Assembly (NCBI GenBank): GCA_040390065.1
Contig: JAZJZE010000011.1
Location: 32,001-96,000 of the forward strand
Length of the DNA stretch: 64,000 nt
Reading direction: 5' to 3'
Origin: a bacterium
Lineage (GTDB): Archaea > Thermoplasmatota > E2 > JACPAO01 > JAHFTW01
The notes under the pieces are model-generated. The model had not been told where the DNA came from. It did not search any database and saw nothing but the letters and a program-made list of their open reading frames with translations. Shown piece by piece: positions 1,996 to 64,000 of this stretch. The translations under genes and the position numbers were made by a program. Each line of letters starts with the position of its first letter. Position 1 is the first letter of the stretch.

Positions 1996-2068
1996 GGGTC
2001 TGTGGTCTAGCGGTTATGACGTCACCTTGACATGGTGAATATCACCAGTTCAAATCTGGTCAGACCCA
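1996..2068 (+). tRNA. tRNA-Val(GAC)
   Basis: Acceptor stem GGGTCTG/CAGACCC plus discriminator A; anticodon arm TCACC-TTGACAT-GGTGA; T arm ACCAG-TTCAAAT-CTGGT; no encoded CCA. Confidence 0.97.
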
Positions 2069-2259
2069 CTGCACACGTCGAGTAGGATTGCGTCCCATCG
2101 CTGTTGGACGGAAAACGTGGGTCTGGATGGGCGCGAACGGCGGGCACGCCAACCCCCTGGTTTCGCCTGAACGCCTACAGACAGCGCTTCGTCCAGGCCC
2201 TTAACCATTATCAACGGGCCCGATGTAGCTACTGCGTGGTCGGTCACCGCATTCGCCTA

Positions 2260-32608: not shown

Positions 32609-32637
32609 TGTGCGAGTACTGGATCGACGCTTCTGAC

Positions 32638-32990: not shown

Positions 32991-33056
32991 GAGTGGGGAA
33001 GTCGTGGGGCACCTTTCATCCAATACTCCTAAAAGAAAGGGCCTGCTTTCCTCGCA

Positions 33057-37263: not shown

Positions 37264-37275
37264 GGAGTAACCACA

Positions 37276-40941: not shown

Positions 40942-41463
40942 ATGCAAAGCCTAGGCCGCGTTGTTGGCATTGTTCTTCTGGTGCCATGTCTCTTCCAATT
41001 TGTTCCGGTGGGCGCCGCCCAAGACTACGAGCCCTTAACGGGCGCAACGCCAGCCATTCGCATCAACCTCAGTAACCCCGTGACCCAGACGTTTTACTAC
41101 AACTGGACGACAAGTGCGTCCTCGATTTCCATAGACTACAAGAGCAATGTCACGAAGGGCACGGTAAGCGTTGAGATTCGCTCCCCCGAAGGAACTCTAG
41201 CGTTTGCCCGGGCAATCGACGCGTCCATCTCAGCCAACCAGACTCTGCCCACCAAGAAGCCTGGCACCTGGACGGTTTCCCTTGCCTTGTCGGGCTACCA
41301 GGGCCTGCTACTCATGAAGTTCAAGGCTGGCCCGGCTCCAATTCAACAAAGCAATTCGGCGTCCGGCCCGCCGTCCTCGTCTGGCACCAAGGCGTCGCCT
41401 GCGGATTTGCTGGCCGCCTACGTGATCATTTTCGCCGTGATGGCAAGGCGTCGCAAGGCCTAG
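40942..41463 (+). CDS. Small secreted beta protein with PGF-CTERM-like tail
   Basis: Signal peptide; S/P-rich linker; KASPADLLAAYVIIFAVMARRRKA. Confidence 0.8.
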   Translation: MQSLGRVVGIVLLVPCLFQFVPVGAAQDYEPLTGATPAIRINLSNPVTQTFYYNWTTSASSISIDYKSNVTKGTVSVEIRSPEGTLAFARAIDASISANQTLPTKKPGTWTVSLALSGYQGLLLMKFKAGPAPIQQSNSASGPPSSSGTKASPADLLAAYVIIFAVMARRRKA

Positions 41464-41521
41464 CGACCGTGTTGAAGCCGTCATAGAATGAGGCCATAGG
41501 GAATGTTCTTCTAACAGCCCT

Positions 41522-47500: not shown

Positions 47501-49996
47501 ACCGTCACGACGCTGCTCTCCTATGATTCCGCAGGCCATCTCGTCCGAACCGTGGACATCTTGGGCCAGGCAAGGAGGGCGGGTTACGACTCCAGGGGCA
47601 ACGTGGCCTGGACCACTGACACAGCGGGCCCGCTGTTGCCCGACGCTGCGGAGGCATACGACGGCTTCATCAACGCCGATGGCAACGTGGTAAGCTACAG
47701 CTACGACGGGAACAACCGGCTGATCGAAGTCCGGCGCGATCTCCACCAGGACGGCACGACTAACAGCGTGCTGACGGGCTACGTGTATACATTCCAGGAT
47801 TGGGACGCCGACGGGCGCCTCGCTGCAATCACGGACGACATGGGTCACAAGACGACCTACACTTACGACAGACTCAACAATGTCCTCCGCGAGACGATGG
47901 CCGACGGCACCGCGACCAACTATCTCTACGATGCAACGGGTCATGCCGTGCGCAGGACTGATGCCCTAGGCAACGCGGTGGCCATCGGCTTGACTGCGAC
48001 CGGCCTTCCTGCACGCGCAGCCGTAGCGGGGCCCGCTACCCTGTCGACGCTTCTGACCTACGAGTATGACGGCCTCGGGCGCGTGACGCGGGCAACGGAC
48101 AACAACAATCCTGGCCTTCCTGCGGACGATGCAACGACAGTCCTGCACTACGACTCGACCGGAATGCAGGTCGCCGACGTACAGAATGGGATGGGCGTTT
48201 CGCGGACGTACGACAGCGTTGGCCTCGCCACTGGCCTGACCTACCCCAACGGACGAGCCGTCCTCAAGGCGTACGACGCCGCGGGCCGCCTCACGCAAGT
48301 GGCCGATCCGGGAACGCCTCTGCCGAATCCGATTGTCAACTATGCCTACGGCACCATGCACCTCGGGATGAAGGACTATGGTGGGATGGCCACCTATTTC
48401 GGCTACGACAGTGCTGGCCGACTGGCAGGTATGACTGGGGCTCTGCATTATTCGTTCCAGTACGATCGCCAGGGGAGCGTCACTGGGGAAGTTAACTATG
48501 CATACCCTCACGAGAGCCGTGCAGCTTCCTATGACTCTCTGGGCCGACTCGTGGATGAGGACACGTCCAACTTCGCCAACCTCTACACAGTCTCGCCTCC
48601 GACGGACTACCAGGCGTCCCACATGACGTGGGAGCTTGACACGTCGAACGACTGGGTCCACCTCGCCTCCACACATGTGGCGGGTACGGCGACGGAGGCT
48701 AGGTCGCATGGCCCTGTCGACCAACTCAGGAGCATCACCGTGGACGGCGTCAAGACGACCTACACCACCTCCGCGGCCGGCAACCGGCTAACCGACGGCA
48801 CCCAGGCATACACCTGGGACGCGTTCAACCGCTTGCGCAGCGTGACGACCCTCGCGACCGGAATGGAGGCGGGCCACTACACGTACGACGCCCTCGGGCG
48901 GCGAACCTCAACCGTGACGCCGCTGGCAACGACGGCGTTCTACTACGACGGCCTCAACGTCATCGAAGAACGAAGCGGCACGGGAACGCTGCTCCGCCAG
49001 TTCGTCCACGGTTCGGAGGCAGACGAGCACGTCGTGCTCGACCGGAACCTGGACGGCGACAATTCGGCCACCGGCCCTCTTGACGAGCGTGTCTACTATC
49101 TGCAGGACCGCATGGGCAACGTCGTCGCCTTGGTCAGCTCCGGCACCGTGCGCGAACGCTACGTGTACGACCCGTATGGGCACATGGTCATCATCTCAAA
49201 CCTTGTCTTGCCCGCGGCGGCCATCCCGGTGTCCGCCTTCGACAACCCGTACACGTACACAGGGCAGCGTTTTGACTCCGAGAGCGGACTCTTCTACTAC
49301 AAGGCTCGATACTACGACGCGGAGGCAGGCCGGTTCCTCAGCCGTGATCCGGTTGGTGCATGGGGAACACCAAGCCTTGGGAACGGATACTCCTACGTTT
49401 CGAACATGCCGCTTCAGTTCCGGGACGCCACGGGCAAGATGTTCGGAATTGACGAGCTCGTATCTGGATTTGTTGGTGCGGCGAGTGGCCTTACGGTTCA
49501 CTTGCTTACAGATTGTTTTAGCGGAGATGGGTGCAATGACTCCCTCGGAAGCTATGTCAATGCCGCTGTGGATGGGGCGTGCCTTGGGGTGGCCGTGGAC
49601 GACGCGCCCGTTGGTGTCGGAATCGCGCTTGGGGCCACGTGCGGCGCCATTGGGAACATTGCGGGACAGGCAACCGACATCGCCACAGGGGCACAATGCG
49701 GACCGGACTTCAACAGTTTGGCGGTGGACACGGCGATGGGAGCCGTGAGCGGCGGCGTCGGTGCCAAGATGAAAATCAGGAAGGTTCACTTGAACGTGGG
49801 CGCGGGGAGCATGCGGGCGGTTGCGAAGGGAGCGCTCACCGCTCTGCGAAATGGAGGAATCCACGACCTGTCGTACAAGACCGTCGGGAAAATGTACGTG
49901 GCGACGCTGGTACCGACATTCATCACGGATGCCGGGTCGGATCTTACTGAGCCTGGCCTGGAATACCTTGTGGACCCGGGGCGTGCAGGTTGCTAG
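41522..49996 (+). CDS. Rhs/YD-repeat polymorphic toxin with signal peptide, 4 CxDGxDxDGDG repeats, about 5 FN3, DUF6531-like domain and Rhs core
   Basis: INAVTGQF...IGKNW (DUF6531-like); many YD repeats; core PYTYTGQRFDSESGLFYYKARYYD...GRFLSRDP...YSYVSNMP...DATG; ~186-aa Gly/hydrophobic C-terminal domain. Confidence 0.93.
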   Translation: MSAKSVQTESLGQPTGSHGTVAASARSIILAALLLMCLAIALVLLVPQASATPVAPVPDSPAENSVPPIYNDGDGTYVIATWDHAIPCRNGIYMAASYGLGGGYAGSDIGSTCTGHIWAGCGSTWRVKYQDSSGWSAWSELRHYGGSCETPPLPPPPPPPAPPTPPPEWGPTPPSPDCSDGIDDDGDGMTDAADPGCTGDPTHTEAPWNAPEPTPAGPSQCNDGIDNDGDGYVDMQDPSCDYNHMSTESPVNAAPPPPECGDGIDNDGDGYADSNDPECQHEPYTVESPWNAPPQCTDGTDDDGDGLIDAADPGCGYYPFDREDTPAPPPSPILSISGECGPQPGRIVLTWTAQNTNDVTLHRITGSGTTLATSAPPSPITDDRTVIGTVYYYSLSAPWNGNTIYSNQVSVTAGRPPDTPTGVTATAQSPGTSIHLTWTPGSTGGCEPVTYNVYGSSYASGTFEILAKDLTTPEYTQSSLPPGTWRFYRVSAQNPTGGSAQSDLAYARTWDAATPPTKFHVQPGDKQLVLTWSGPSSSGGGTITGYRLSGAHPGDSMTVLHDGASWYSPTASGYTYPHTGLTYDETWDYDIEATTGVGNGGSATDSAKTFGVPAIPMHIIGKAGTAAGQIALTWQPPNMDGGYPVTKYSVFRGLSDALCSTTFLGDVTDLSTLPFVDSGLAAGITYSFCVDATNEAGPGKTGVVRVTPPERPSPPRDLQAALDTPNTKLTWLVPLTDGGSPLTGYGLYTSPDGTTYTGPTMLPVAPLSYSSLPCSASCHYYVTAWNIYGESQPSNIVPAVATFPQESIRGTTPGTGMKLKQTLNCGVEQNETINAVTGQFVASLCVMTARSEYKGMNLTILATHRSDSLSSDFIGKNWFLSIDRRLDFVTQGIILNDGTGRLDGFLETSPGVYKSPPGFYETLTPTASGYDLVHVGGITEKFDSHGLRTKVEDVFGNSIRFSYADGKIVEITDAHDRITRLQYDGDRLATITDFDGRVTEFAYGGDDLAGIKLPAATADGPATTHEFTYTPQHNVRAVKDPAGHVYITNSYDALDRVSDQSDGTSSFRLTYTPSQSTTTVTDRNGNIVGWGYSGVLPIFKKTYMNRGVAPDQLLEYDTSFTTTADLEISQILQADGIQTSFTFDSAASAALPHGNLRRQEIAAPSGAGLAPLVATYDYEPLYQNVRSVTAPEGNDATYVPQNGGSTSPARYTTTYYYGDDEVTMGDLNGDGIATGEPHGRPVRIVHPLLNPTGSPSPLTDGYQPQIECIQYNAHGQETQHIYPDGRLVGTLYYKSNGIPGDPSDQEGFVFAALEYWDADTSSCAPLSSGSMAAMASPAAPESDQPQTPVGEFLNWTYTYDNSGNLLTQTDPTGNVTTFEYDRLNRMTRTVLPGPAKADIKFSYDADGNLVTRQTKNSVQLPDGSIATDPTNPYLTDTFAYDALDRRTDEWLSAARPTGAIDSTTALTLHGKFGYDKNGNLVMVRRAPSAQGIDGNDATTYIYDERNQMQYATTGGLNPLFSRLAANNQVTTSGLTDPFTLYLHDTAVAKTTAQCISDTQEWTPGDIIANPGKAPQIVCTSLYACTTGCPAPTCVSVPPKLLCAPEPVCAAGSLLGLSNPVDVTLAPPTLTANPPPCVAASLGDTMDPAWPTNLRPQTDPILVPDATGGASARLVVGETPLQNAKVSWTYTPSPPLMVQDARIMLDFWAMQTDTTTTPNTWKARLYSGATLLASNDPVAGTTFSNRPIGEAHEYRIALGTASFTVSSLRLEVEAVGAQPGRLVLMDSPRAPSRLEIGTAATTSNDYDAGGRILQQSDSDARTTRNEYDGMGRPTTMTAPDGTRTVQTYDASGRVVDKKVYGATSGIGFQTTPGPSVLLAKSRLFYDEAGRLFRTDVGRFDPTTGTNLPDAGLFPGDGFASTLVDYDAGGHPIKVISDTGATHEYQYSGLGRLTWEKDVGENEATYSYGANGRPMKIDVTMTELGPAGTWTLPAHTVTTLLSYDSAGHLVRTVDILGQARRAGYDSRGNVAWTTDTAGPLLPDAAEAYDGFINADGNVVSYSYDGNNRLIEVRRDLHQDGTTNSVLTGYVYTFQDWDADGRLAAITDDMGHKTTYTYDRLNNVLRETMADGTATNYLYDATGHAVRRTDALGNAVAIGLTATGLPARAAVAGPATLSTLLTYEYDGLGRVTRATDNNNPGLPADDATTVLHYDSTGMQVADVQNGMGVSRTYDSVGLATGLTYPNGRAVLKAYDAAGRLTQVADPGTPLPNPIVNYAYGTMHLGMKDYGGMATYFGYDSAGRLAGMTGALHYSFQYDRQGSVTGEVNYAYPHESRAASYDSLGRLVDEDTSNFANLYTVSPPTDYQASHMTWELDTSNDWVHLASTHVAGTATEARSHGPVDQLRSITVDGVKTTYTTSAAGNRLTDGTQAYTWDAFNRLRSVTTLATGMEAGHYTYDALGRRTSTVTPLATTAFYYDGLNVIEERSGTGTLLRQFVHGSEADEHVVLDRNLDGDNSATGPLDERVYYLQDRMGNVVALVSSGTVRERYVYDPYGHMVIISNLVLPAAAIPVSAFDNPYTYTGQRFDSESGLFYYKARYYDAEAGRFLSRDPVGAWGTPSLGNGYSYVSNMPLQFRDATGKMFGIDELVSGFVGAASGLTVHLLTDCFSGDGCNDSLGSYVNAAVDGACLGVAVDDAPVGVGIALGATCGAIGNIAGQATDIATGAQCGPDFNSLAVDTAMGAVSGGVGAKMKIRKVHLNVGAGSMRAVAKGALTALRNGGIHDLSYKTVGKMYVATLVPTFITDAGSDLTEPGLEYLVDPGRAGC

Positions 49997-50958: not shown

Positions 50959-51035
50959 CCACTCAGGCTTGCGTGAGACGCGTGGAGGTCTCCCACTCAG
51001 GCTTGCGTGAGACGCGTGGAGGTCTCCCACTCAGG
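50959..51035. repeat. Perfect 34-bp tandem repeat (about 2.3 units)
   Basis: CCACTCAGGCTTGCGTGAGACGCGTGGAGGTCTC x2 plus CCACTCAGG; internal GAGAC/GTCTC hairpin. Confidence 0.9.
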
Positions 51036-51923: not shown

Positions 51924-52598
51924 CTAGTGGGCGTTGCAGCTGTAGGCTGAGCCGACGTGGGCGAGTTTGCCAGTCAGGGTGAGGCCGGAGTCCTGCATTC
52001 CGCTGGGCGCCGCCGTCGTCGTCATGCCGGGGTGGAACGTGGCGCCTTCGCTCATCGGCATCGCGAAGGAGCTGGTGCCTTCCTCAGTTGTCGCCGTGCC
52101 TAGGAACCACAGGACGTCTTGGTCGGTGACCAGGATGCGGCCGTCGTACGTGGTGTCGGTCCAGGATCCGTTCCAGTCGTCAGACGTGACGCGGCAGGTG
52201 ACTTTGACCTTGTCGGCAACGCCGGCAATCTTCTCGGTTCCTACTGGGGGCAGGTCGCAGCCCATGGTGAGGCTGCCGAAGATGTTGGAGGCCGACATCG
52301 AGGCGTGAGATGGCCACAGGCCGGTCTTGGTGGAGCTGGCCGTGGAGTAGACGGCCGCGCCGGGGGCGGGGTAGTCTGCGTGGCCGTCGGTGTGGCTGGC
52401 AACGAGGGCAAGGCCCGTGCTCGCGCTTGTTGCGGCGCCGACGCCGATGGATGACGCGTTGGCCGAGGCGGATGAGCTACTGCAGCTGACGCCGCCGCCG
52501 GTTCCGATAGGTGCGCCGCTGGCGCTTGCGGGCGGCGACAGTACCGCCACGACCAGGAGGATGGCTGCCGAAAATAGGCCAAAGCGTTTGGTGTTCAT
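51924..52598 (-). CDS. Secreted Ser/Thr-rich hypothetical protein
   Basis: Signal MNTKRFGLFSAAILLVVAVLSPPASA; 4 Cys. Confidence 0.8.
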   Translation of the reverse strand: MNTKRFGLFSAAILLVVAVLSPPASASGAPIGTGGGVSCSSSSASANASSIGVGAATSASTGLALVASHTDGHADYPAPGAAVYSTASSTKTGLWPSHASMSASNIFGSLTMGCDLPPVGTEKIAGVADKVKVTCRVTSDDWNGSWTDTTYDGRILVTDQDVLWFLGTATTEEGTSSFAMPMSEGATFHPGMTTTAAPSGMQDSGLTLTGKLAHVGSAYSCNAH

Positions 52599-53019
52599 GG
52601 GTTCACGTCCCGCGGGGCGGGCGGCCATACAATGACGTCGTCTTCTTGCGTCTTCTGGCTACAACGAGCCTCACGCACGGCTACGAGCCTGCCACAGCAC
52701 CAATTCGTTCTGAAGACCCCAAACTGACTCCACCTCGGGCCCTCCGGGGATTTGTCCCAAACAAACCCCCGCAGCGCATCGCGGACTCGCAGGACACGCC
52801 AATCCGTGAGAAGGCGTTGCTCGACGGTGAACCCTGGGGGCCCGTGGTCAATTCGCCTCCCGCCCGTGCAATCCACGCCTGGAGAGGGCGACGGCGGTTC
52901 CAGGCGGCCCTGGGCCGGTGGCCGGAAAGTGTCAGGAACTGGGGGGCCATCGCCGCTGGGTCGCTTCGGGTGCGCGGGGCCTCGAATCCGGGCTGGCGGG
53001 CGACATGTCCTTGGCGTGG

Positions 53020-53140
53020 GCGGCCATGTCCCTCTCCTCCGCAGCAGGAGGGACGGCCCCGCCGCGATCTTCGCCCGCCACTTCCCGTCACTTCCCGCGA
53101 TCTGGTGTTTTCACTTTCTCTCCTATTGGGTACCTCCCGG
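53020..53140. repeat. Dispersed repeat A, long copy; direct repeat of 3321-3430
   Basis: See partner; contains an internal duplication CACTTCCCG x2. Confidence 0.7.
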
Positions 53141-53185
53141 GCACGTAACCTCGACGTTTGTCAGAATGTGCCCCACCGTTCTCCA

Positions 53186-54469
53186 TCAAGGGAGCCGGAT
53201 GACGGAGGGGCCGGGGTCGGCGGGTGCGTTCGAGCCAGTGCGCGGCGCCTGCGTGGACGGGAACTGCCGCGTTGCGGAGAGCGGGTTGGCGGCGACGATT
53301 CCCAGCCCCAGGGCCGCGTTCAGGTTGCTGGCCAGCAGGGTCTTGGGCGTGTTCAGGCTGCGGTGGACCCAGTAGCGGAAGGCCGCCAGGTGCCAGGAGT
53401 GGCCTTGGATGGTCGTGCGGACGTACGCCTCGATGGCGGCCTGCGCCGCGGCGCGCACCGCAGGGCTCACGCCGGGCCTCTCGAAGTAGTCCAAAAGCGG
53501 CTCGAACGGCTGGATCTGCTGCACGAAGGAGGTCCCGTTGCCAAGGTCGCCGAGCACGTACGCTCGATGAAACTCGCGCGTGAACGTCGTGGTCCATGCC
53601 TCAACCTCCGAGTTGTCGCCTTGCAGAATGCTGCCGGATCGCACGTGGCGGATGTGGTCCAGCTCGTGGTTGAGGACGATGCGGCCCCAGAGGAAGTTGT
53701 CCGGCTTCAGCGCCTTGGGGCCGAGTATGACGAAGTGGCTGAAACCGGTGGCGATGCTGCCCGTGCTACGTGTCCGGCCCGCCAGGTTGCGCCCCGCCTT
53801 TGCCTCCAGGTTCTCGTCGTAGTTCACGATGGGGTTGGCGAAGCTGTATCCGCTGAGCAAGCTCGTGTTGATGGCGGGGCTGCTGGCGGCCTGGGCGGTG
53901 ACGTCGTTGACGGTCACGTTGGACGCGACGACACCGGAGTTGGACGGGATGGCGGCCGCCTGCTGCAGGAGCGCCGCCATGGCGCCGGGGGTCACGGCAG
54001 CCGTGACTGCGTTCTGCCAGCCCACGGGTGCCGCGCTGGCCCCCGGCCCGTAGAATACCGTGGTTGGCTGCTGCGCGGGCGGAATCGCCTGCGCGGGCTG
54101 CGCCGCTTGCTTGCCCCTGAAGAAGCCAAAGGACCGGACGGGGGAGGTGGGGGCGACCTGCTGGCGGGACGTCCCCGCGTCACTGCCGTCGGAAGTGTCG
54201 GCCAAGCAGCCCGTGGCGCCGTTGCCGCGTATTGGGTTCAGCAGAGCGGCGTCGAGGGCGGTCCACGTCAAAGGGCCCACAATGCCGTCCACGACCAGGG
54301 ACTCGCCGGCCTGGAAGTCCCGCACCGCCTTCAACGTCTTTGGGCCGAAATCGCCGTCGGCAGCAAGCGGCGGTTGTGCTCCAGCAAGGTTGAGGTCATT
54401 CTGCAATTCGATGACGGACTGGCCCTTGGATCCTTGTCGAAGCATCGGCCTTGTGATTGCCTGCGGCAT
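53186..54469 (-). CDS. Peptidoglycan-binding domain plus HExxH metallopeptidase-like protein; candidate eCIS effector
   Basis: LRQGSKGQSVIELQNDL...DGDFGPKTLKAVRDFQ...L.VDGIVGPLTW.AL (PG_binding_1); VLNHELDHIRH...SEVEAW; no signal peptide. Confidence 0.85.
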   Translation of the reverse strand: MPQAITRPMLRQGSKGQSVIELQNDLNLAGAQPPLAADGDFGPKTLKAVRDFQAGESLVVDGIVGPLTWTALDAALLNPIRGNGATGCLADTSDGSDAGTSRQQVAPTSPVRSFGFFRGKQAAQPAQAIPPAQQPTTVFYGPGASAAPVGWQNAVTAAVTPGAMAALLQQAAAIPSNSGVVASNVTVNDVTAQAASSPAINTSLLSGYSFANPIVNYDENLEAKAGRNLAGRTRSTGSIATGFSHFVILGPKALKPDNFLWGRIVLNHELDHIRHVRSGSILQGDNSEVEAWTTTFTREFHRAYVLGDLGNGTSFVQQIQPFEPLLDYFERPGVSPAVRAAAQAAIEAYVRTTIQGHSWHLAAFRYWVHRSLNTPKTLLASNLNAALGLGIVAANPLSATRQFPSTQAPRTGSNAPADPGPSVIRLP

Positions 54470-54670
54470 GCCGCCGTGGACCGGCCCATGCAACATAATG
54501 GAGATTCACGCGACATGGGACCATCGCGTCGGCGGGCGGACGGCCAACGTCGAATCGCAATCGAAACAGGCGCGCGAGTATCCTTAGGACTCGCCGTGGC
54601 TGCCGCGCCTGCGCCACTACGGAAAGTCGCAGTAGGGCCTGTTCCCGTCGTGCGGCCCAGAAAATCATTA

Positions 54671-56452
54671 CTAGAACCTGAACGTGCCGAAGTGCGGTGT
54701 CACGCCCGGCACGAAGAAAAGGGACCACACGCCTCCAACGGCGGCCTGGCGGAAGCAAGTGACGACGCCCGCGCCGGCGTCCGCGTACATCTCGATTGAT
54801 GGGAAGATTGTGGTGAGGGGGCGGAAGTCCACTTGCCGACGGGCCAAGTCGATGATTAGGTTCCCCCGGATTGCGATGTCCGGCGATCCAAACACGCACG
54901 GGTCATTCGCCGTGGCATCGAAGAGAACGTCGTAACGCCGGGAAGATGGCAACGCGGGGCCGACGGTCGTCACGGCCGCGCTTGGCGCCGGCCTAGCGCT
55001 GCACTTGTACGCTCCCGTCCCGCAATCCACCTCGAAGGTTAGGTCGCCGTTTTCAGAGTGGCTTGCCGTGCCGGTGGAGGTGTCGAAGTCGATGAGGAAC
55101 CTCAGACGCGAGCTTGCCCCGATGGCTGGATTGAATGTGCGCTCGTCCGTTTCGAAGCATGAGTTCCAGTGCGGTCCTGGAAGTGGCGGCCCCTCGAAGA
55201 CCTGGCGGCCGGCGAACGGGCCTCCTCGCTGGATGTGGGCACCCGAAAGGGTGTTTGGGATGAAGGCGTGAAACCAGAACCTGATGTGGCGGGGAAGCGG
55301 CCGCGCTGCCGCGGCCGGAGTTGGAAGGGGCGCAGGAGTGTGGGTGGGGCGCGGCCCTTCGAAACTCACGGTTGCCCGCCGGTTCCTGCCCTCTACTCCG
55401 AACTGCGTCGTCTGACCGTGAACGAACCGTTCGATGGAGACGTTGGGAATGCCTTGCAGACCGCCCGCACGAGGTGATTGCAATGCTGCTACGACCGCCA
55501 AAGCCCTGCGGCAGGAGAGACGCCAGTTGTACTCCTGCGCCACGTGTTCATCGCGGCTGCCACGAAACCGTGTACTCGAGTAGGCGTGAACCTGAATCCG
55601 CGGCTGGTTCCCCGCGGCATGCCAGTTCCGAATCACTTGGTCGAGCGCATCGCGCCGAGCGTCATCCAACGAGTCCTCATCGTTGCCGAAAAGGGTTTCC
55701 AGGACGACGTTGGCAGGATCCTGGTTGGCGACCGGGCAACGCAGGTCGGCTGGCGGTCGGCCTGCCTGCTCGGGGAAAACTGGTCCTTGATGCGCCTGCC
55801 GATGAACTATCCATGGATTATCGGCACACGTTGCCGCCGTGCCCTGCTGGATTGTATGCACGAGTTCGTGCGCAAGAAGCCGTCGGCCTTGCGTCGTGGT
55901 CGGGTGATACGTCCCGGCAGCGAACGAGATGTCGTTTCCCACAGTGAAGGCATGCGCGGAGAACGACTCTGCTGCGGAGGCAGCCCTGGAATCCGTGTGG
56001 ATCCGGACGCCGGCGAAATCAGCGCCAAGCCGAGGCTCGAAGAAATCGCGTACGTCCTTCGGCAGCGGCGCCCCTGCGTTCGACGGCGCCACGGCGTAGC
56101 CGTCCGCCTCGAGTCGCGGCTCGCCAGCTGCGAATCGGTAAACGCCTTCCTCCTGGTCAGCACATGGTCCCTCTCCGGCGCAAGACGAGCAGCAGGAACG
56201 CTGAAGTGCGGAATTCGCGCCCGCCTGGTGCAGAACCGGCTGCTCATTGGTGGCCATCCGCATGACGCGGTCCGCCAGCATGTCGGCCTCCACCTCGGCG
56301 GCATCGTGCGGCTGGCTGACCTTCAGTTTGGCTTGCAGTCGCCGCAGGTTGAATTGGTTGCTCGCCCTCGGGTGGCAATGAGGGCGCGCGGCCGGGACTT
56401 CGGCGGGAGAGGTCGTTTGCGTGCGGTGGGACAGGCGTGCGGCCAGAGCCAT
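54671..56452 (-). CDS. DUF4157 (eCIS core) protein with OmpA-like domain and beta-rich C-terminal domain
   Basis: LQAKLKVSQPHD..E.EAD..ADRVM; PLP...R.FFEPRLGADF..VRIHTD...A.AFTVG.DI.F..G.Y.P....G..LLAHELVH..QQ; OmpA-like YNWRLSCRRA.AV...NRRA. Confidence 0.9.
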   Translation of the reverse strand: MALAARLSHRTQTTSPAEVPAARPHCHPRASNQFNLRRLQAKLKVSQPHDAAEVEADMLADRVMRMATNEQPVLHQAGANSALQRSCCSSCAGEGPCADQEEGVYRFAAGEPRLEADGYAVAPSNAGAPLPKDVRDFFEPRLGADFAGVRIHTDSRAASAAESFSAHAFTVGNDISFAAGTYHPTTTQGRRLLAHELVHTIQQGTAATCADNPWIVHRQAHQGPVFPEQAGRPPADLRCPVANQDPANVVLETLFGNDEDSLDDARRDALDQVIRNWHAAGNQPRIQVHAYSSTRFRGSRDEHVAQEYNWRLSCRRALAVVAALQSPRAGGLQGIPNVSIERFVHGQTTQFGVEGRNRRATVSFEGPRPTHTPAPLPTPAAAARPLPRHIRFWFHAFIPNTLSGAHIQRGGPFAGRQVFEGPPLPGPHWNSCFETDERTFNPAIGASSRLRFLIDFDTSTGTASHSENGDLTFEVDCGTGAYKCSARPAPSAAVTTVGPALPSSRRYDVLFDATANDPCVFGSPDIAIRGNLIIDLARRQVDFRPLTTIFPSIEMYADAGAGVVTCFRQAAVGGVWSLFFVPGVTPHFGTFRF

Positions 56453-56480
56453 GTTGGTCGAAGGAATGCGTCGCAGGGGA

Positions 56481-56495
56481 TGAATAAGCGATTCA
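56481..56495. promoter_or_regulatory. Palindromic operator over a putative TATA box of the DUF4157 gene
   Basis: TGAAT-AAGCG-ATTCA about 30 nt upstream of ATG 56452, in the divergent region with the wHTH gene. Confidence 0.45.
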
Positions 56496-56900
56496 CGAAA
56501 GAAAGGCACGCCGCAGGCTACAGGCTGGACGGCCTGTGCAAGGCCGCGCAGCCCGGGGGGGTTTCGGGGGGCCTTCTACTTGACCTTGGATGCGGCCGCA
56601 AGGACCCGTGGCCTCGCGATGCCAAGCACAAAACTGGGTGCAAACAGCCAAATCCAGCGCGGGTCGCACAAATGGGAGACCACGGCCACTGTGCCCGTCG
56701 CACCCAGGAGCCCGAAGATGGCGCTTGCGTCCTTTGTAATCTCGATGCGCATGGATGTGCGAATGCGACCGGGCCAAAAATCTTTGCAGGCGGTTCATTC
56801 GCGAGACCCAGGCATCGTGCCGGGCTCTCGCGAATCGGCGGCGATGTGTGAAGGATGTGCAGACCCAGTCGTTATGGTCATCCGGCTTTGTGGCCCCATC

Positions 56901-57455
56901 ATGGACGGGCCCGCTTGGAACCCCTTGAAAAGGAAGCGAGACGGCGCGGCGACCCGGGCCCGCCTTCAGGGTATTGTTCAAGAGCGGCCCGGCCTGAGCC
57001 TGAGTCGACTTGCATGTTTGGGTGGGGTTGCATGGCACACAGCTCGGTATCATCTACAGATTATGCAGGAACAAGGATTGCTGACCATCGAGAAGGGCCG
57101 GTGGGACAGCCGCATCTATCTCAGCTCCATCCCAACGGCGGAACGGCCATGGCGCCGCGCCCTACATGAAGACCGGACACGTCTCATCCTGAGCGCACTC
57201 TCAAGCCAGTCAGCGGCCGGTGTGCGTGATATCAGCGTGGCCGTCGGCTTGAGCAGGAAGATTGTCCGCAACCAGGTCAAACGCCTCGTCCAAGACGGGG
57301 TGGTCGCTACCAGCGGCGGCGCCCGTCCGCGCTTCTGGGCCACCGCCGCGGCCCACCGGGGCGCAGGCGGCGAGTCGCACACCGATGTTGCGCCGCCAAC
57401 CTCCGGGCAGCCCTTGGCGGAAATCACGCCGCTGCAACCCACCCTGCCGGTCTAG
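56901..57455 (+). CDS. Tandem winged-HTH transcriptional regulator
   Basis: ERPGLSLSRLA...VAWHTARYHLQIMQEQGLL and AGVRDISVAVGLSRKIVRNQVKRLVQDGVV; similar to 15715-16140. Start is inferred. Confidence 0.85.
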   Translation: MDGPAWNPLKRKRDGAATRARLQGIVQERPGLSLSRLACLGGVAWHTARYHLQIMQEQGLLTIEKGRWDSRIYLSSIPTAERPWRRALHEDRTRLILSALSSQSAAGVRDISVAVGLSRKIVRNQVKRLVQDGVVATSGGARPRFWATAAAHRGAGGESHTDVAPPTSGQPLAEITPLQPTLPV

Positions 57456-60400
57456 GCCTCGTGGAGCAGAATCCAACGGGCTGCATGGCCGCCCTCGCGG
57501 CCGCAAGGGGGGAATGTCTCGCCGCGGCTCAGCGGAATCGTGTTCTCCGGATGGGCGCTGCACTGGTAGACGCCGCTGAGACGGTTTTTCTTCCCAGTGG
57601 TTCCCGGCTCCGCTACGAGCGCGACCTGGCCTTGGTCGCCACCCAAGGGGGATTCTGTCGTGGGCGCATCTGCCCACTCTGTGTCTTGGCGGGCTTCCCC
57701 TTGCGCCGTGTTGATTGCGACTACGGGGGGCCAACCAGGCCGAACCTCGAGGCCAAGAGGGTCGGAACCAGCGGGAGGCGGCCCTCCGACGCCAACCTGG
57801 AAAAACTCGGTGCGGCCAGGCTGGCACCGCACGCGTGTTGCGGTCCTGTGCCGGACGGGCACATTCTTTCCTTCGCCGGCGCCCTGAACCGCCAAGCGCA
57901 CGGTTGGCCAGAAAATGCCATACGCCGGGCCGTCGAAGGCGAACCGGAACGCGCCGTCCGGCCCCGTGACCATGGACCGCCGCCAAGCGCGACTCCATGC
58001 GCACCACCACGGTGCATCAGGCTGAACTTGAACGCCCGCAACCGGCTGGCCGGCAGGGTCCACGACGCGGCCAGCAAGGGTGCACGAACGGGAAGCGACC
58101 GATGCAATTGGCATCCCCTCGACGGCCTCAAGCGCGGGCCCGAGTTCGGCGTCCTGCCTCGTCGTGCCCTGGGCCGCGGCCCATGCGGTCACCAGGGCCT
58201 GTAGTTCCGCCAGCACCGTCGGCTCGGAGGACGCCCAGTCTCCGAGCGGCGTCTGCAGCCCAAGGCCGGAAGCGGCGGCCGCGGACATTGGCATCGCGGC
58301 GCCCGATGCCGCCTTCGCGATGAGGCGGGCGGCCGTGGTTGGAACGGGGCCTTCACTGGCCACCACGTTTGCCGACTCCGACACGATAGACGCCACGGCG
58401 ATGAGTTGCCCTTCCGTGGGGCCTGCACCGGCGACGCGGAACGTGTTACCTTGGACGATGACTGCCGTCGGCGTCACACAGGCCACCGCGCTTGCGCCTC
58501 CGGAGCCGCACACGACGTCGTTACCGCAGAACCGGATGTCACCGGAGGCACCGCCCGTCGCGGGCGCGGCGCCTTCCACGTGAACCGCGAGGTGCGAGGA
58601 AGGCGTGGCCGTCAGGGCGGGCCAGAGCGGATCGGTGCCGGCATTGTGGAGGTAGGCGGCTGCGCCGACGATGGGCGTCGAATGGTCTGGGCCGCGTGCG
58701 TCGAGGGAGTTTCGCTCGACGCGGAGGCGGCCAATCGCTGTGACGACGAGCGCTGGGCCAGCCGGGCACGTGAAGCGGTTTCCTTCGACGAGCGCCGCGT
58801 CCGCGGCGGCTTCGGCCGTTCCCGAGGCGAACGCCCCGAGCACGTGCACGGCCGCTTGCCCGGGCTGCCCGACGTCGGCGGTGCCGTTGCCGGCCACCTC
58901 GTTCGCTAGTAGTTGCAGTCGCGTGCATCCGCGGATGGCTACGCCCTGCATGGGTCCGCCTGCTGGTCCTCCGTTGCCCACGATGCGGTTGCCGCGCAAC
59001 GCAAGGCCGGCCACGCGGGTGGCGCGGATGGCGCAACGTGGTTCGCCGTCCGGCCGCGGCGCGCGTGCGCAGTCCGTGACGACGTTATCAACGAGCTCGA
59101 CTTTCTCGATAGTGGCGAGGTCCTTGTCGGATCCGACCACGATGCCCTCCAGGGCGAAGCCGCGGATTCGGTTGCCATGGAGCCTGACCTCGACCGTTCC
59201 CGCCGAAGCTTGGCCCGGCTGCGGCATGCCGCCGACGGAGATGCCGGGACCGGAACCTCCCGACAACTCGCTGTCGGCGACGGCGACGCTTCGTGAGCCC
59301 CCTGTAATCCAGATGCCTCCGCCGTCCAAGTGGCAAGCGGCGAGGGAGACCCCGGCCGCGCCCTCGCTGCGCACGAGGACCGCTGCCTCGCCGCGGACGG
59401 TCAGGCGCGAAAGGCGTGCACCCGCTCCCCGCAACACGAGGGCCGATTGCCCCGGGTACGCCTGGATGACCGTGCGACCGGCCTGGCCTTCGATGGTGAC
59501 GTTAGGCTGGTCGACGATTACGGGGCCATCGAGGCGGTGGATGCCAGCGAGTACGCGCACCGTGCTGCCTTCGCCGGCGGCGCGCACGGCATCCTCGAGG
59601 CGACCATAGTTACCGAAGGACGACACTCCATCCCCGACCGTCAGGATGCCGGCCTCGCTGCGGGAGACGGCCGGCGAAAAGAAGGACCGGACGTCTTTGA
59701 CGCGCCATGTGACCCCACCTCTTGCTGCCGGGCTCCACTCGAGAGCGGCCAACGGGGCGGTGGCGTGCCGCACGCCCTGCGGCGGGGCCCGCTGCAGGAT
59801 GTCAATGGTGGCAGTTGCCGTACGTGTCGCGAATGTCCAGTAGTCGCCGCTTACGAGGCAGGTCCCTTCGATCTTCGGCTCGATGTCGCCCTCTAGGAAG
59901 CCGTGGCCTCCGGCCGGGAAGCAGGCCGGCCCGGAACTGGCCCACCGGCGAAGGCGCAGCCGTGAGGGTGATTCCGCGCCGGCATCTGGCCGCGTTTTCA
60001 CTGGCGGGTCCAGCACGACCCGCCGGCCGCGAATCTCGATGTCTGCAATGCGGTGGAGTGTGCCTGGCTCGCCAGCCATCTCCTGCGCGACACTTTGCAG
60101 TTCCACCGCGTCGTTGACGCGCAGGGCGAGGGGAGCATCCTGGGCCCACGGGTCGAGCACCACGGCGCCGCCCGCTTCCGCGTCGACGGTCGCGACGCTG
60201 TACGCCACCGAGGCGTTGTCACGCGCCCACTTCCACGTTGCGACGCGCCGGACGCGCCGAGCAGCCCCGACGTCGGGGAGGCTGCGATCAAGTTGCAGAG
60301 TCGTGCCGCGGCCATCAACGCCCACGACCTGCGCTAATGCCCCCGGCTGGCCCGCCGCTTCTGTGTCTGCGCCGTATACCTCGACCCACTGGCCCACTTG

Positions 60401-61150
60401 CCACAGCCGGCCATCGCACAGCCGGTGCGGAACGTGCACTGCCTTGTCCATGTCGTCGTATGCATCCGCCCCGACTTCGACCGCCTCGATTGCATTGGGC
60501 CGGGGCCAACCGTACGCTGCCCCGCCGTCGTGCACCTCGATGCGGTAGAGGCAGTCGTGTGATCCCCGGTAGCGCCCCTTGCCAGGCGCGACCGGCGGGG
60601 CGTCGATGGTCAGCACCGCGTCCGTTCTAATCGCCTCGGTGGCCGCGTCCCGGCCGTCCTCCGCATCGCGCACGACCTGGACCTTCACCTGGGCGACGGT
60701 CTGCACACGAGTTGCCGTATCCAGTCCCCGAAGGCCAGCGTCGAGGAGGCTCGGGTCTTCCAAGGCCGACACATGGCGCTCCCACACGTCGAGGTAGGCA
60801 AGCGCCGAGCCTGCCTTGGATAGGTCGAGGCGGGGCGCGGCCGGCAGCATTGGTTGGGAGAAGTAGCGCACCGGCCCGTCAAGCCGGCAGGCCTTGCCAT
60901 GCACGTAATACAATCCCGCGGAGATGTCGAAGTCGCCGACATCGTTGGGGGTACCGATGGCGAATCCTGCGGCGTGTCGCGGCCCCCCCGCGGGGCCCAC
61001 CGCGTCGCGGACGAACTGCTCACGCAAGTGGTCGTGGATGGCTGCAGCCTCGTTCCAGTCCGCATCCAGGTCGACGCGACCCTGTTGCCGCAGGACGCGG
61101 GAGTAGTTCTTCGTGGGGTCGTGCCTCAGCGTGGTAAAGTCTCCTTTCAT
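57452..61150 (-). CDS. DUF6519 eCIS protein with right-handed beta-helix repeats
   Basis: MKGDFT...YSRVLRQQGRVDLDADWNE; YLDVWERHVSALED..L...L.G.DTATR; LYRIEVH..G; WKWARDNAS; GDYWTF..R; parallel beta-helix repeats. Confidence 0.9.
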   Translation of the reverse strand: MKGDFTTLRHDPTKNYSRVLRQQGRVDLDADWNEAAAIHDHLREQFVRDAVGPAGGPRHAAGFAIGTPNDVGDFDISAGLYYVHGKACRLDGPVRYFSQPMLPAAPRLDLSKAGSALAYLDVWERHVSALEDPSLLDAGLRGLDTATRVQTVAQVKVQVVRDAEDGRDAATEAIRTDAVLTIDAPPVAPGKGRYRGSHDCLYRIEVHDGGAAYGWPRPNAIEAVEVGADAYDDMDKAVHVPHRLCDGRLWQVGQWVEVYGADTEAAGQPGALAQVVGVDGRGTTLQLDRSLPDVGAARRVRRVATWKWARDNASVAYSVATVDAEAGGAVVLDPWAQDAPLALRVNDAVELQSVAQEMAGEPGTLHRIADIEIRGRRVVLDPPVKTRPDAGAESPSRLRLRRWASSGPACFPAGGHGFLEGDIEPKIEGTCLVSGDYWTFATRTATATIDILQRAPPQGVRHATAPLAALEWSPAARGGVTWRVKDVRSFFSPAVSRSEAGILTVGDGVSSFGNYGRLEDAVRAAGEGSTVRVLAGIHRLDGPVIVDQPNVTIEGQAGRTVIQAYPGQSALVLRGAGARLSRLTVRGEAAVLVRSEGAAGVSLAACHLDGGGIWITGGSRSVAVADSELSGGSGPGISVGGMPQPGQASAGTVEVRLHGNRIRGFALEGIVVGSDKDLATIEKVELVDNVVTDCARAPRPDGEPRCAIRATRVAGLALRGNRIVGNGGPAGGPMQGVAIRGCTRLQLLANEVAGNGTADVGQPGQAAVHVLGAFASGTAEAAADAALVEGNRFTCPAGPALVVTAIGRLRVERNSLDARGPDHSTPIVGAAAYLHNAGTDPLWPALTATPSSHLAVHVEGAAPATGGASGDIRFCGNDVVCGSGGASAVACVTPTAVIVQGNTFRVAGAGPTEGQLIAVASIVSESANVVASEGPVPTTAARLIAKAASGAAMPMSAAAASGLGLQTPLGDWASSEPTVLAELQALVTAWAAAQGTTRQDAELGPALEAVEGMPIASVASRSCTLAGRVVDPAGQPVAGVQVQPDAPWWCAWSRAWRRSMVTGPDGAFRFAFDGPAYGIFWPTVRLAVQGAGEGKNVPVRHRTATRVRCQPGRTEFFQVGVGGPPPAGSDPLGLEVRPGWPPVVAINTAQGEARQDTEWADAPTTESPLGGDQGQVALVAEPGTTGKKNRLSGVYQCSAHPENTIPLSRGETFPPCGREGGHAARWILLHEA

Positions 61151-63228
61151 GATGGTTGCCTCGATGCGTCAATGATGCGGATGTCAGTCGATGGGGGAAA
61201 GAATTCCTCGATTCGGGTGCGTAGGTTTCGGCTGCGGAAGCCCTGGCGGAAGGGCCCATAGGCACCCATTTCCTCGCCGTCCTTGCCGCCCTCGAGGATT
61301 GCCTTGTCGCAGTCCGTGAGGAGCTTGGCGTACAATGGGTGGCCCAATATCCTTGATTCGAAGAGTGGCCGCGGCGGCGACGCCTTACTTGCTGGGGCTG
61401 CGCCCGGGAGGCAGCCGGGACCTTGAACCGGACCTCCGGCGGCCTCAACGAATGAGTGGTCCATGGATCCGTAGGGCCGCAGGACGTAGGCACCGTCCGC
61501 GACGATGGATCCAGTGCATGCCTGCAACTCGACGGTGTGCACCTGCCCGAAGACCGTGCATTGCACAAGTTGAAGGGGGGCACCTTTAGAAGGGGGGCCG
61601 TTCGCCTGCGCTGGTCCACAGTACGCCGCCGAGCCGGCCCGGCCGAGACCCGCGTCGATGATGCTGCCCGAGGCCCGGACAGTGGCGCCGACGGCGGGCA
61701 GCTGGATTGGACCCACGACGCTGCGCTCCAGCTCCAGCTCGAGGTCGACCACGTGGATGCCCGTGATGGCGGGCGCCCGAACAGTACGGCCGCCGTGCAG
61801 CGTGCAGTGGTCGATGCGCACGCCAAGGCGGCCGGTCAGCACGAGTCCCGCCGAGATGGCAAGGCCTGCCAACGAAAGATTCGCGTCGCCGTCGTCTACG
61901 GAAATCTTCCATGGCGCGGCCCGACGCAGGGCGGGGCGGTCGCCGGGCGCCGCCTCGATTGTCAGTTCATCGCCCGGACGCAGCAAAATGTCGGGCACGG
62001 GGAAGAGCCCATTTCCCGCAACGCGGATGATGGCCTTGGACCCCCCGTCGGGGACCGCGTTGCGCCATGCGGCCAAGGCCGCGCGCAGGGACGAGACAAC
62101 GGGCCATGGCGGGGGTTCGTTCTCGTCTGGAGTTGCCTGCGAAACCGTGAAGCGGTGCGCGTCATCCATTTCCGGCCTCGCTTGGAAGTAGGACCCGCCC
62201 CCGATGGGTTCAGGCAACCCGACGCTGGCGTCGACGCGCAATCCCCCGGCCTCGCCGTCGGGGACCACGATGCGGCCGGTGCGGACATCGATGCCGAGAC
62301 GACACCGCGTCCGATGGGAGATGCCGTTGGCGTCCCTCCACGTCGCATGAGTGGGCGGTTTCCTCCAGGTTGTGAGGTCCATGGCCACGACGGATTCGGC
62401 CGGAAGCGGCGTGCCTTGCATCCGCACGGCCAGGCTTTGTCCAAGCCCGAAAAGGGTGCTAGCCGGCTTGGCGGCGCAGCGGACCTCGTCGAGGTCGCGT
62501 GCCAACTCCGACGGGTCGATGGCCCTGGGGACCGACATGGCCCCCGTAGCTGCGCCATTGTCCGCCGCGGTTGGCCTGACGAAGAGTGGGCGGTCGGTGC
62601 CATGAGGGTCGACGGTGAAGGCCCGGATGCCTGGTATGCCGGCGGGAGCAGGCTCGATGTCGTCCAGCGGGTAGCTGCGGACCGGCCAGCAGTACACCGT
62701 GACGCTGGCGGCCGTGTGATGCGCAGCTGGCGGTTCACCGGTGCGCAGGTCCGCGCTTTGCGCCCAGGGGCGAAACGGTTCCCCGCCCGCCCAGGGGGCC
62801 TGGCGCAGGTCGACGGTCGACGGCCGGGCTGCGCCCAGTATCGGCATGGCCGCGCGGGCCACGCGAGCGCGGCCTGGCACGACGTGGACCGTCCAACCGG
62901 TCAAAGTCCGCGCCAGTTCCGCAAGCATTGGGTACGTGGCGCGGCGGCGCTGGAACCAAACGGTCTTCGCGACATCACCACGCGGGCTCAGGCCCGCCGG
63001 TGGAAGGGGGCGGTTTCCTACAAGGTCGCCGATATAAGGCAAGGCCCAGTCGCGGCAGGTCTCCACGAAGAGGTCGTCCAGGAGGCGGTCGATGTCGCGC
63101 TTCAGGACCTCGGCCTCCTCGCTCAAGGTGCCAAGGAACGCAGCAAGGGCGCCGCCACCGTACGCGTCGTCGCGCCGGTACATGGCCGGCATCAGCTGGA
63201 ACAGGTCGAGGCCTGGGCTAGACGTCAT
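61147..63228 (-). CDS. eCIS/phage-tail baseplate wedge protein (tail protein I-like N-terminus)
   Basis: LFQLMPAMYRRDD...DDLFVETC..W.LPYIGDLVG...R.DVAKT...RR.T...LA..LTGW; C-terminal EMGAY...LRTRIEEFFP. ATGA overlap with DUF6519. Confidence 0.85.
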   Translation of the reverse strand: MTSSPGLDLFQLMPAMYRRDDAYGGGALAAFLGTLSEEAEVLKRDIDRLLDDLFVETCRDWALPYIGDLVGNRPLPPAGLSPRGDVAKTVWFQRRRATYPMLAELARTLTGWTVHVVPGRARVARAAMPILGAARPSTVDLRQAPWAGGEPFRPWAQSADLRTGEPPAAHHTAASVTVYCWPVRSYPLDDIEPAPAGIPGIRAFTVDPHGTDRPLFVRPTAADNGAATGAMSVPRAIDPSELARDLDEVRCAAKPASTLFGLGQSLAVRMQGTPLPAESVVAMDLTTWRKPPTHATWRDANGISHRTRCRLGIDVRTGRIVVPDGEAGGLRVDASVGLPEPIGGGSYFQARPEMDDAHRFTVSQATPDENEPPPWPVVSSLRAALAAWRNAVPDGGSKAIIRVAGNGLFPVPDILLRPGDELTIEAAPGDRPALRRAAPWKISVDDGDANLSLAGLAISAGLVLTGRLGVRIDHCTLHGGRTVRAPAITGIHVVDLELELERSVVGPIQLPAVGATVRASGSIIDAGLGRAGSAAYCGPAQANGPPSKGAPLQLVQCTVFGQVHTVELQACTGSIVADGAYVLRPYGSMDHSFVEAAGGPVQGPGCLPGAAPASKASPPRPLFESRILGHPLYAKLLTDCDKAILEGGKDGEEMGAYGPFRQGFRSRNLRTRIEEFFPPSTDIRIIDASRQPS

Positions 63229-64000
63229 GTCGTGCCTCCGCCACATCCACGACGATTTCGCCAGCTGATGCGACTTGGTTGCCTTCGAATGCCAGCGCGC
63301 CCGACAAGGTCGGCTGCGCTGCTTCGTCCTTCCGGAACCGAGTAAGCTCGACGGATGCAACGCCAGTTACCCGTTGCAGGCAGGCCACCAGCCTGCTGGC
63401 GTGCAGGGGCTGCCCGACGTCGCTTCCCATCTCGGCAAACAGGCTCCGGATAGCGGCGACTCCGGCAGCCTGGACGCGCGCGCCTTCGCGGGCGTCTGTG
63501 ATGCGCAGGCGCGCCGTGACGGCGACGCGCACGAACTCGGGCGCGACGACTCGAACGGTGACCGTTGGGTCGCCCAACGCGTCTAGATAGGCGGCAACGG
63601 CCTGCTGAAGCTTCTTGTCCGGCTGAGGAGTGCCCGCGACGACGACCTCCACCACGCGGCGGCCGTCCACGAGGGTCGCGCTGGCGCGGGCGAGGCCGAT
63701 GCCGGCAAGGCGGCACGCCGCGTCCTCATAGTCGCGCAAGGAGACCAGTTGGCCAAGGGCGCGCACCGAACGTCCGGCCCGCCGCCGCACCGAAGACGTG
63801 TCCTCCGCGTCTGCTCCGCCGGCGCCACCGGCGACATTTCGTGCGCGCTGCAGCCGGGCTGGCGAATCAACGAGGGCGCAGACCTCGCCGGCAGCGACGT
63901 TTCCGGCCCTTCCCAACCCAACGCGGTAGCGGGCTTCGATGGTCGTGCCGCCGGGTGGCCGCATACCGTGGCGACCGTCGCCGAAGAGGATGGTGGTTCG
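63218..64000 (-). CDS. Baseplate assembly (J-like) protein, C-terminal part; 5' end lies outside the window
   Basis: ILFGDGRHGMRPP....ARYRVGLG..GNV...GGADAE...LVSLRDYED.A...GI..A.A. Confidence 0.88.
   Translation of the reverse strand, partial: RTTILFGDGRHGMRPPGGTTIEARYRVGLGRAGNVAAGEVCALVDSPARLQRARNVAGGAGGADAEDTSSVRRRAGRSVRALGQLVSLRDYEDAACRLAGIGLARASATLVDGRRVVEVVVAGTPQPDKKLQQAVAAYLDALGDPTVTVRVVAPEFVRVAVTARLRITDAREGARVQAAGVAAIRSLFAEMGSDVGQPLHASRLVACLQRVTGVASVELTRFRKDEAAQPTLSGALAFEGNQVASAGEIVVDVAEARHDV

Follow-up and report, generated by a model that had tools for sequence, protein, structure and literature searches.

Why an archaeon that makes no peptidoglycan should carry proteins with peptidoglycan-binding modules among extracellular contractile injection system (eCIS) genes is the question raised by the locus described here. 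The locus begins in the last part of a 64,000-nt stretch of DNA (the window), which corresponds to positions 32001–96000 of C11, a 226-kb contig of the source genome, G000. We favour, with moderate confidence, the answer that this is an archaeal eCIS delivering peptidoglycan-directed effectors to bacteria. A preliminary description made from the letters of the window had reported baseplate J, wedge, DUF6519, DUF4157/OmpA-like and PG_binding_1/HExxH genes between positions 53186 and 64000, and Pfam searches confirmed all of them at these sites on the minus strand. The features on which the argument draws are the following, where AF2 stands for AlphaFold2, GC3 for GC content at third codon positions, ORF for open reading frame, and G286 for a genome of the same genus.

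1996..2069, plus strand: tRNA-Val(GAC), called by ARAGORN and Rfam, the last 22 bases of which (2047–2068) form the left attachment repeat
53186..54496, minus strand: effector candidate 1, with PG_binding_1, a linker and a C-terminal HExxH...E domain (Pfam, family alignment, AF2)
54671..56509, minus strand: effector candidate 2, with DUF4157, a divergent OmpA-like module, a proline-rich linker and an all-beta C-terminal domain (Pfam, family profile, structure model)
56510..57451, no strand: intergenic region of about 0.9 kb separating the tail-fibre gene from the effector genes (frame-specific GC3 profile, junk-like ORF translations)
57452..61150, minus strand: tail fibre of 1232 aa with N-terminal DUF6519 (Pfam; syntenic homologue in G286)
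61147..63360, minus strand: baseplate wedge protein of 737 aa in an Afp12-like position (sub-threshold Phage_Mu_Gp48 match; 31% identical syntenic homologue in G286)
63218..64000, minus strand: C-terminal part of a second Baseplate_J (Afp11-like) gene (Pfam), which extends beyond the window to about C11 97605

The tail-fibre protein carries a clear DUF6519 match (E 7e-38; E-values for protein families are from Pfam), this being the domain described as the eBAP5 baseplate-anchor domain (PMC12923769), followed downstream by weak beta-helix and CarboxypepD_reg-like matches. The label 'wedge' is borne out by the syntenic position of the 61147–63360 gene in the G286 eCIS, whereas its match to Mu Gp48 stays below threshold (E 0.0018). 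Baseplate_J was recognised in 63218–64000 with an E of 4e-18, in a gene truncated by the window end. Two ORFs were rejected as genes, namely a 186-aa ORF at 56493–57053 with an Arg/Cys-rich, junk-like translation and a 762-aa plus-strand ORF at 52511–54799. Because neither has a family or a coding signal at third-position GC, the roughly 0.9 kb at 56510–57451 was taken as intergenic, and a promoter dedicated to the effector genes may lie within it.

The complete Afp/PVC-type gene set spans C11 85186–111534 (26 kb), of which window positions 53186–64000 form the distal third. After the window end, and on the same strand, come another Baseplate_J gene, gp25 (GPW_gp25, E 2e-14), a weak PAAR-like ORF (DUF4280, E 0.07), a Phage_base_V spike (E 5e-25) with a GPD hub (Phage_GPD, E 5e-9), a 96-aa ORF with a weak LysM match and a 348-aa gene without a family. 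These are followed by an AAA ATPase with a winged-helix domain (AAA, E 8e-26; WHD, E 2.5e-13), Pvc16_N (E 4e-38), a 533-aa gene without a family, a tube-like gene (T4_baseplate match), and finally the gp19 tube (Phage_T4_gp19, E 7e-42) and the sheath (Phage_sheath_1 and 1C, E 9e-13 and 3e-12). The sheath, tube, spike and ATPase genes that the preliminary description had proposed to seek on the adjacent DNA are all present there, together with the Pvc16 cap. Of the 80 best relatives of the sheath, 66 to 80 share the order sheath-tube-tube-cap-ATPase, and the one DUF4157 copy in the genome sits at this locus. A prophage, which capsid or terminase genes in the flanks would have betrayed, finds no footing: Pfam and PHROGs scans of ORFs in and around the locus brought up no capsid, portal or terminase, several flanking ORFs matching no family. 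Read from its genes, the locus is an intact eCIS of the Afp/PVC/AlgoCIS kind, since Afp (Serratia), PVC (Photorhabdus) and AlgoCIS (Algoriphagus) have the same gene set from sheath through tail fibre, DUF4157 proteins included. It differs from these bacterial eCIS in that its host is an archaeon without peptidoglycan and in that it lies on a tRNA-Val island.

An eBAP5-anchored tail fibre is described as an eCIS tail-fibre marker and Pvc16_N as a distinctive marker of eCIS loci (PMC12923769), and the presence of both argues against a system that is not extracellular. Such a system would be a membrane-anchored contractile injection system (CIS) resembling a T6SS (type VI secretion system), or an intracellular CIS, as in haloarchaea or Streptomyces, used by contact or within the life cycle of the cell itself. 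In its favour, the haloarchaeal CIS is membrane-bound (PMC11566945) and no function for lysing, or for release through, an archaeal envelope is evident in the locus. A contact-dependent mode would be compatible with bacterial targets anyway, and we consider a non-extracellular system very unlikely.

The host is a Thermoplasmata archaeon that makes no peptidoglycan. Its genome (2.68 Mb, 67% GC, 89% completeness, 0.3% contamination) has archaeal small- and large-subunit rRNAs, and C11 itself encodes the archaeosine transglycosylase TgtA (an equivalog match of 493 bits against a cut-off of 350). Penicillin-binding protein transpeptidase and SEDS gave no match in G000, while all ten bacterial controls matched. 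The single Mur-ligase-fold match in G000 is of a kind that M. jannaschii and H. volcanii, two of four archaeal controls, show as well.

The eCIS is carried by an integrative island of about 92 kb in tRNA-Val, and the empty site is seen in a genome of the same genus. An exact 22-bp direct repeat occurs at window 2047–2068 and at C11 126084–126105, 92 kb apart (BLAST E 4e-5, whole genome), with a tyrosine integrase (PF00589, E 4e-14; phrog_1) 1.6 kb inside the right repeat. The genes that flank the repeats are separated by 94 kb in G000, by only 1.6 kb that include tRNA-Val in the same-genus genome G155, and by 4.8 kb in G403. In DNA-level synteny comparisons with five same-genus genomes, window 22000–41500 was without a match, and the right flank gave two short matches of 67–73% identity. 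Because the locus lies on a mobile island, the patchy distribution of the eCIS is explained: of 401 phylum genomes, 13 have the sheath, G000 included, and so does one of the eight other same-genus genomes sampled.

These observations also bear on whether misassembly or mis-binning could have put bacterial DNA on an archaeal contig, as the preliminary description had left conceivable. G000 is a metagenome-assembled genome (MAG), and the only sequencing run that contains the stretch is probably its own source, so that an independent assembly of that run does not count as independent evidence. This assembly, moreover, was broken near window 51000, yielding a 21.9-kb piece that ends at 50988 and a 32.9-kb piece that runs from 51006 on into the eCIS; two other runs of the same study held tiny fragments of the stretch. 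However, the break, which is the sole one in the region, coincides with a 34-bp tandem repeat beside a 20-bp inverted repeat (window 50959–51022), and the two pieces, both at depth 12.8, are bridged by two tiny pieces. The nature of the repeat also ruled out the break site as an attachment site. A chimeric join is strongly disfavoured because the tRNA-Val repeats and the integrase bracket the island and its flanks are adjacent in a relative. In addition, a related, syntenic eCIS (30–58% identity) lies on a 368-kb contig (367,845 bp) of another Thermoplasmata MAG, the same-genus G286. With the island inside an archaeal tRNA-Val, flanks that adjoin in a same-genus genome, and TgtA on the same contig, C11 is archaeal at this point, and an assembly artefact is scarcely credible.

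The peptidoglycan-linked proteins of the locus number three rather than the two of the preliminary description; both of those are present, and the third, which lay outside the range that it covered, is encoded beside the sheath. In the first (53186–54496), PG_binding_1 is N-terminal and matched over model positions 2–57 of 57 (E 1.2e-14), and an HELDH motif was read from the translation downstream of it. The likely start Met lies at 54469, and the database gene call is 427 aa long. A full-length search returned no other protein that spans both domains, while for its C-terminal 297 residues 1.84 billion proteins yielded a family of 71 representatives, itself included. In 36 aligned members of this family the H, E and H of the motif and a Glu 16 residues further are invariant. 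DUF4157 accompanies the domain in 22 of the 36, PG_binding_1 in this protein only, the named members being from MAGs of Acidimicrobiales and Bacteroidia. The AF2 model of the domain has a pLDDT of 92.6 and places HExxH and the Glu on consecutive helices. With VIA-align the best Z was 5.5, a scatter of zincin peptidases scoring Z 4.2 to 4.8, with no fold family established, and the ESM Atlas offered no usable lead for this domain or for the C-terminal domain of the second protein beyond weak zincin-like neighbours. The domain is a probable zincin-like metallopeptidase. That the protein is eCIS cargo, as had been proposed, gains from the DUF4157 linkage of its C-terminal family and loses from the lack of a DUF4157 of its own.

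The second protein (54671–56509) has an N-terminal eCIS_core/DUF4157 match (E 2.1e-30) with the motif HELVH, the database gene calls beginning at 56281 or 56452. With its N-terminal, HExxH-bearing DUF4157 and a variable C-terminus, it has, by sequence, the architecture of DUF4157-tagged cargo. The OmpA-like domain attributed to its middle part stands in a qualified form: its own Pfam match reaches 24.5 bits against a cut-off of 27.2, but OmpA-like domains of solved structure (PA0833-PD, E 2.8e-5; Pal, E 0.0034) are matched by a profile built for the module from its 13-member family. In OmpA-like domains, an Asp and an Arg contact the peptide stem of peptidoglycan. A weak pairwise alignment to YfiB (E 0.17), with GSRD...YNWRLSCRRA opposite GHTD...YNQKLSERRA, retains the Asp of GxxD and the RR of LSxRRA. 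The last 210 or so residues form a conserved all-beta module in which Cys, His, Glu and Asp residues are invariant. Among its 12 homologues, eight carry DUF4157 (Pfam) and seven carry an OmpA-like or PG_binding_1 domain, two unrelated folds, in the same position (as read from Pfam columns, names and the alignment). The named relative is from one Streptosporangiaceae MAG. The model of this module (pLDDT 90) had a single structural match, BAS0735 of Bacillus anthracis Sterne (PDB 3c5p; Foldseek E 2e-11; Z 19.8 and rmsd 2.4 over 184 residues), which has no known function. Neither this BAS0735-fold domain nor the HExxH...E domain matches a Pfam family at E ≤ 0.01, and no account of either came to light in print, although no literature search was aimed at them.

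The third protein (297 aa, divergent from the sheath gene) combines PG_binding_1 (E 3e-17) with Phage_lysozyme2 (E 4e-13) and has no DUF4157. Joining a recognised binding domain to a recognised wall-cleaving domain, it has the predicted architecture of a modular peptidoglycan hydrolase. The lysozyme domain has 370 homologues, the best 120 at 55–69% identity, and the named ones are mostly from Actinomycetota and labelled 'phage tail tip lysozyme'. Among these best 120, about 45 carry PG_binding_1 and 10 carry DUF4157 (counted by reading). Searched on its own against solved structures, the lysozyme domain gave no meaningful match.

A signal peptide or hydrophobic N-terminus is absent from all three proteins, as read directly from their N-termini. 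The two PG_binding_1 copies are 69% identical, N-terminal and begin at about residue 8, and both match wall-binding domains of endolysins and L,D-transpeptidases of solved structure. They are the only copies in G000, so that the domain occurs in this genome within the eCIS locus and nowhere else. PG_binding_1 is found in 18 of the 401 phylum genomes, in none of the 12 other sheath-positive ones and in none of 18 further genomes of the family. Of 80 related, mostly bacterial, loci, one showed PG_binding_1 similarity no more than 6 kb from the sheath gene. At the family level the modules do not appear degenerate. Compared with bacterial eCIS, two of the three candidates here carry PG_binding_1 where homologues of the effector domains (the named ones bacterial) carry DUF4157.

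That PG_binding_1 twice, an OmpA-like module and a phage-tail lysozyme family converge in one locus, with PG_binding_1 sequences resembling binding domains of bacterial wall enzymes, also weighs on the possibility that the modules bind other glycans, such as those of an archaeal envelope, pseudomurein or chitin. The targets would then be archaea or eukaryotes, as for the haloarchaeal CIS or for insect-active eCIS. The sole archaeal CIS that has been tested does kill other archaea (PMC11566945), LysM-type wall-binding domains can bind chitin (PMC12352652), and the BAS0735-fold and HExxH domains are without a known substrate. In view of the convergence of the modules, however, a target other than peptidoglycan appears unlikely.

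How these proteins might reach a bacterium can be outlined from known systems. In AlgoCIS, DUF4157 proteins occupy the tube lumen as cargo (PMC8894135), and in Halogeometricum borinquense they are secreted in a CIS-dependent manner (PMC11566945); effector loading is inferred here because DUF4157 proteins are cargo in both. The particle would be assembled in the archaeal cytoplasm with the assistance of the AAA ATPase and loaded with effectors. Once released, it would attach to a bacterial surface via its tail fibre, contract, and deliver the effectors into or through the wall, where the binding modules would anchor them on peptidoglycan and the effectors would cleave or otherwise damage it. 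The cargo status of the two DUF4157-less proteins, extracellular release, enzymatic activity and a bacterial target are all predicted in this scheme, and bacterial targeting is the best reading of the domain content. Delivery to bacteria is favoured because a host that such proteins would not harm keeps three intact, signal-less putative wall-directed enzymes inside an eCIS locus, and delivery, as cargo or as tip-mounted wall-openers, is the most economical explanation of the trio. More tentatively, the mobile particle of this wall-less archaeon could be an inter-domain weapon, with effectors anchored on peptidoglycan by swapped-in modules and PG_binding_1 replacing the DUF4157 tag. If so, PG_binding_1 in place of DUF4157 would imply a second route of loading or tip-mounting, and the BAS0735-fold and HExxH...E domains would be two new families of wall-directed toxins.

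Several observations weigh against delivery of wall-directed effectors to bacteria. The DUF4157 tag is absent from two of the three proteins, leaving their loading unexplained. The OmpA match taken by itself is sub-threshold, the BAS0735 fold is without a known function, and the HExxH domain is without a convincing structural match, Foldseek returning none for its model at E ≤ 0.001. A sequence search of the C-terminal 600 aa of the tail fibre against solved structures yielded zero matches and no clue to a target. No RNA run is listed as containing the stretch. Furthermore, the G286 eCIS has a 1285-aa DUF4157 protein without a wall module, and no PG_binding_1 occurs in the G286 genome. Because it is absent from this sister system, the peptidoglycan trait is not conserved in the eCIS of the lineage. 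Two last points, the bacterial identity of the named relatives of the effector domains and a lower third-position GC, concern the origin of the locus and make inherited bacterial baggage possible.

A tree built from the conserved part of the sheath (86 rows) places the G000 sheath, on a long branch (0.92; median, 0.29), within a poorly resolved, mostly bacterial radiation, with the G286 sheath as its weakly supported sister (75.6). The archaeal rows of this tree require at least five label changes. Mean third-position GC is 0.785 for 18 eCIS genes against 0.874 for 32 contig ORFs outside the island that had been pre-filtered for values above 0.75, and because of this lower value and the island context a horizontal origin is indicated. 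The locus thus appears, from its sequence, to have been acquired horizontally on an element that integrates into an archaeal tRNA, without a close sampled bacterial donor. The preliminary description had alternatively suggested a recent transfer from a bacterium, which these data do not support, as no close donor was found and identities reach at most 64% for structural genes and 69% for effector domains.

This origin gives the main rival its ground, namely that the island brought along an eCIS of bacterial ancestry with antibacterial effectors or a release endolysin, the genes now being roleless or the system idle. The bacterial affiliation of the named effector-domain relatives (Actinomycetota; Streptosporangiaceae; Acidimicrobiales and Bacteroidia), the position of the sheath within a large, mostly bacterial radiation, a third-position GC under the core-gene level and the sister eCIS of G286 without these modules are all in keeping with it. 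However, each of the three genes is intact, its domains matched over their full length and its catalytic-type residues invariant, and in tetranucleotide composition the eCIS chunks are unremarkable for this genome (69th to 77th percentile). The closest bacterial relatives are no nearer than 64% (sheath part) and 69% (lysozyme domain), and the attachment site is an archaeal tRNA. With PG_binding_1 similarity near the sheath in a single one of the 80 related loci, the modules do not look like a standard eCIS lysis cassette, and the near-identical placement and 69% identity of the two N-terminal copies suggest shuffling within the lineage of the locus. We therefore regard inherited baggage as a doubtful account, yet as the foremost competitor to delivery of wall-directed effectors to bacteria.

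Delivery of such effectors by an archaeal eCIS would have several counterparts in the literature. Archaeal hydrolases with PG_binding_1 have been described to kill bacteria, whereas the idea of archaeal CIS aiming at bacteria is called untested in the same paper, CIS delivery of archaeal hydrolases being a genome-level association only (P = 0.059; PMC12352652). About 5% of archaea are reported there to carry peptidoglycan hydrolase genes, Thermoplasmatota being prominent (PMC12352652). The eCIS has been recorded in archaea before, in 19 genomes of one phylum (PMC8213781), and a Thermoplasmata sheath homologue has been tabulated (PMC9230969). Full-text literature searches on archaeal and Thermoplasmata contractile injection brought up no paper describing such a locus, and survey supplements, which lie beyond that coverage, may include Thermoplasmata loci.

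The T6SS-like CIS of H. borinquense resembles the present system in being archaeal, in secreting DUF4157 cargo and in being encoded by a horizontally acquired cluster, but differs in being membrane-bound, in killing haloarchaea and in having toxin-immunity pairs, and the word 'peptidoglycan' does not occur in the paper's text (PMC11566945). The locus described here has, by comparison, a tail fibre, a cap and wall-directed modules, and no evident immunity genes. Woldo/Danwoldo of Halogranum and the GH25 muramidase of Aciduliprofundum likewise join PG_binding_1 to a wall-cleaving domain and were acquired from bacteria with domain shuffling (PMC12352652). Woldo and Danwoldo differ in bearing Tat signal peptides, and 32% of the archaeal hydrolases surveyed have a Sec or Tat signal (PMC12352652), whereas the three proteins here are signal-less and lie within an injection-system locus. 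For bacterial eCIS-associated toxins (EATs), peptidoglycan hydrolysis is one of the predicted functions (PMC8213781). These EATs differ in having been validated in bacterial producers (PMC8213781), and the HExxH...E and BAS0735-fold families match no Pfam entry. The locus thereby provides a physical linkage of wall-directed proteins and an archaeal eCIS, beyond genome-level co-occurrence. At 26 kb it is a compact, testable candidate for an archaeal CIS aimed at bacteria, and it brings two uncharacterised effector-type domain families with confident structure models.

The island carries a number of other genes, among them ones for surface proteins, and illustrates how tRNA-integrating islands can carry eCIS from one archaeon to another, with an RHS toxin and SLATT/TIR-like genes alongside. 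Window 41522–49996 (plus strand) encodes a 2824-aa RHS-repeat protein of polymorphic-toxin type (RHS_repeat, E 2e-60; fn3; DUF6531-like), which has no recognised C-terminal toxin domain and is followed by small ORFs without a family. Composition on the contig deviates most in the 20-kb chunks around this gene (95th percentile). SLATT_1/SLATT_3 and weak CAP12/Pycsar-TIR-like genes, in appearance a defence-type pair, adjoin each other at C11 117574–119774, in the interval that separates the eCIS from the integrase. Window 25668–27326 and 29442–31496 (plus strand) encode two large proteins with C-terminal tandem HVO_0163-type winged-helix domains, one of them with a DUF4097 'toastrack' domain, which look like island-borne archaeal regulators. 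An 87-nt tRNA-Pro(AGG) called by ARAGORN at window 7983–8069 (plus strand) has no Rfam call and lies within an opposite-strand ORF for a 1163-aa PKD/cadherin surface protein, and is probably a false call.

At the attachment site itself, the 3′ end of tRNA-Val is partly duplicated about 110 nt downstream of the gene on contig C3 of the island-free G155, which suggests that integrating elements have used this site repeatedly in the genus. For the gene to the left of tRNA-Val (window 462–1568, plus strand), relatives match residues of about 160–368 only, and partial copies of its N-terminal 140 or so residues occur elsewhere in G000 (C11 27200–27619, C9 and C2), some of them with stop codons.

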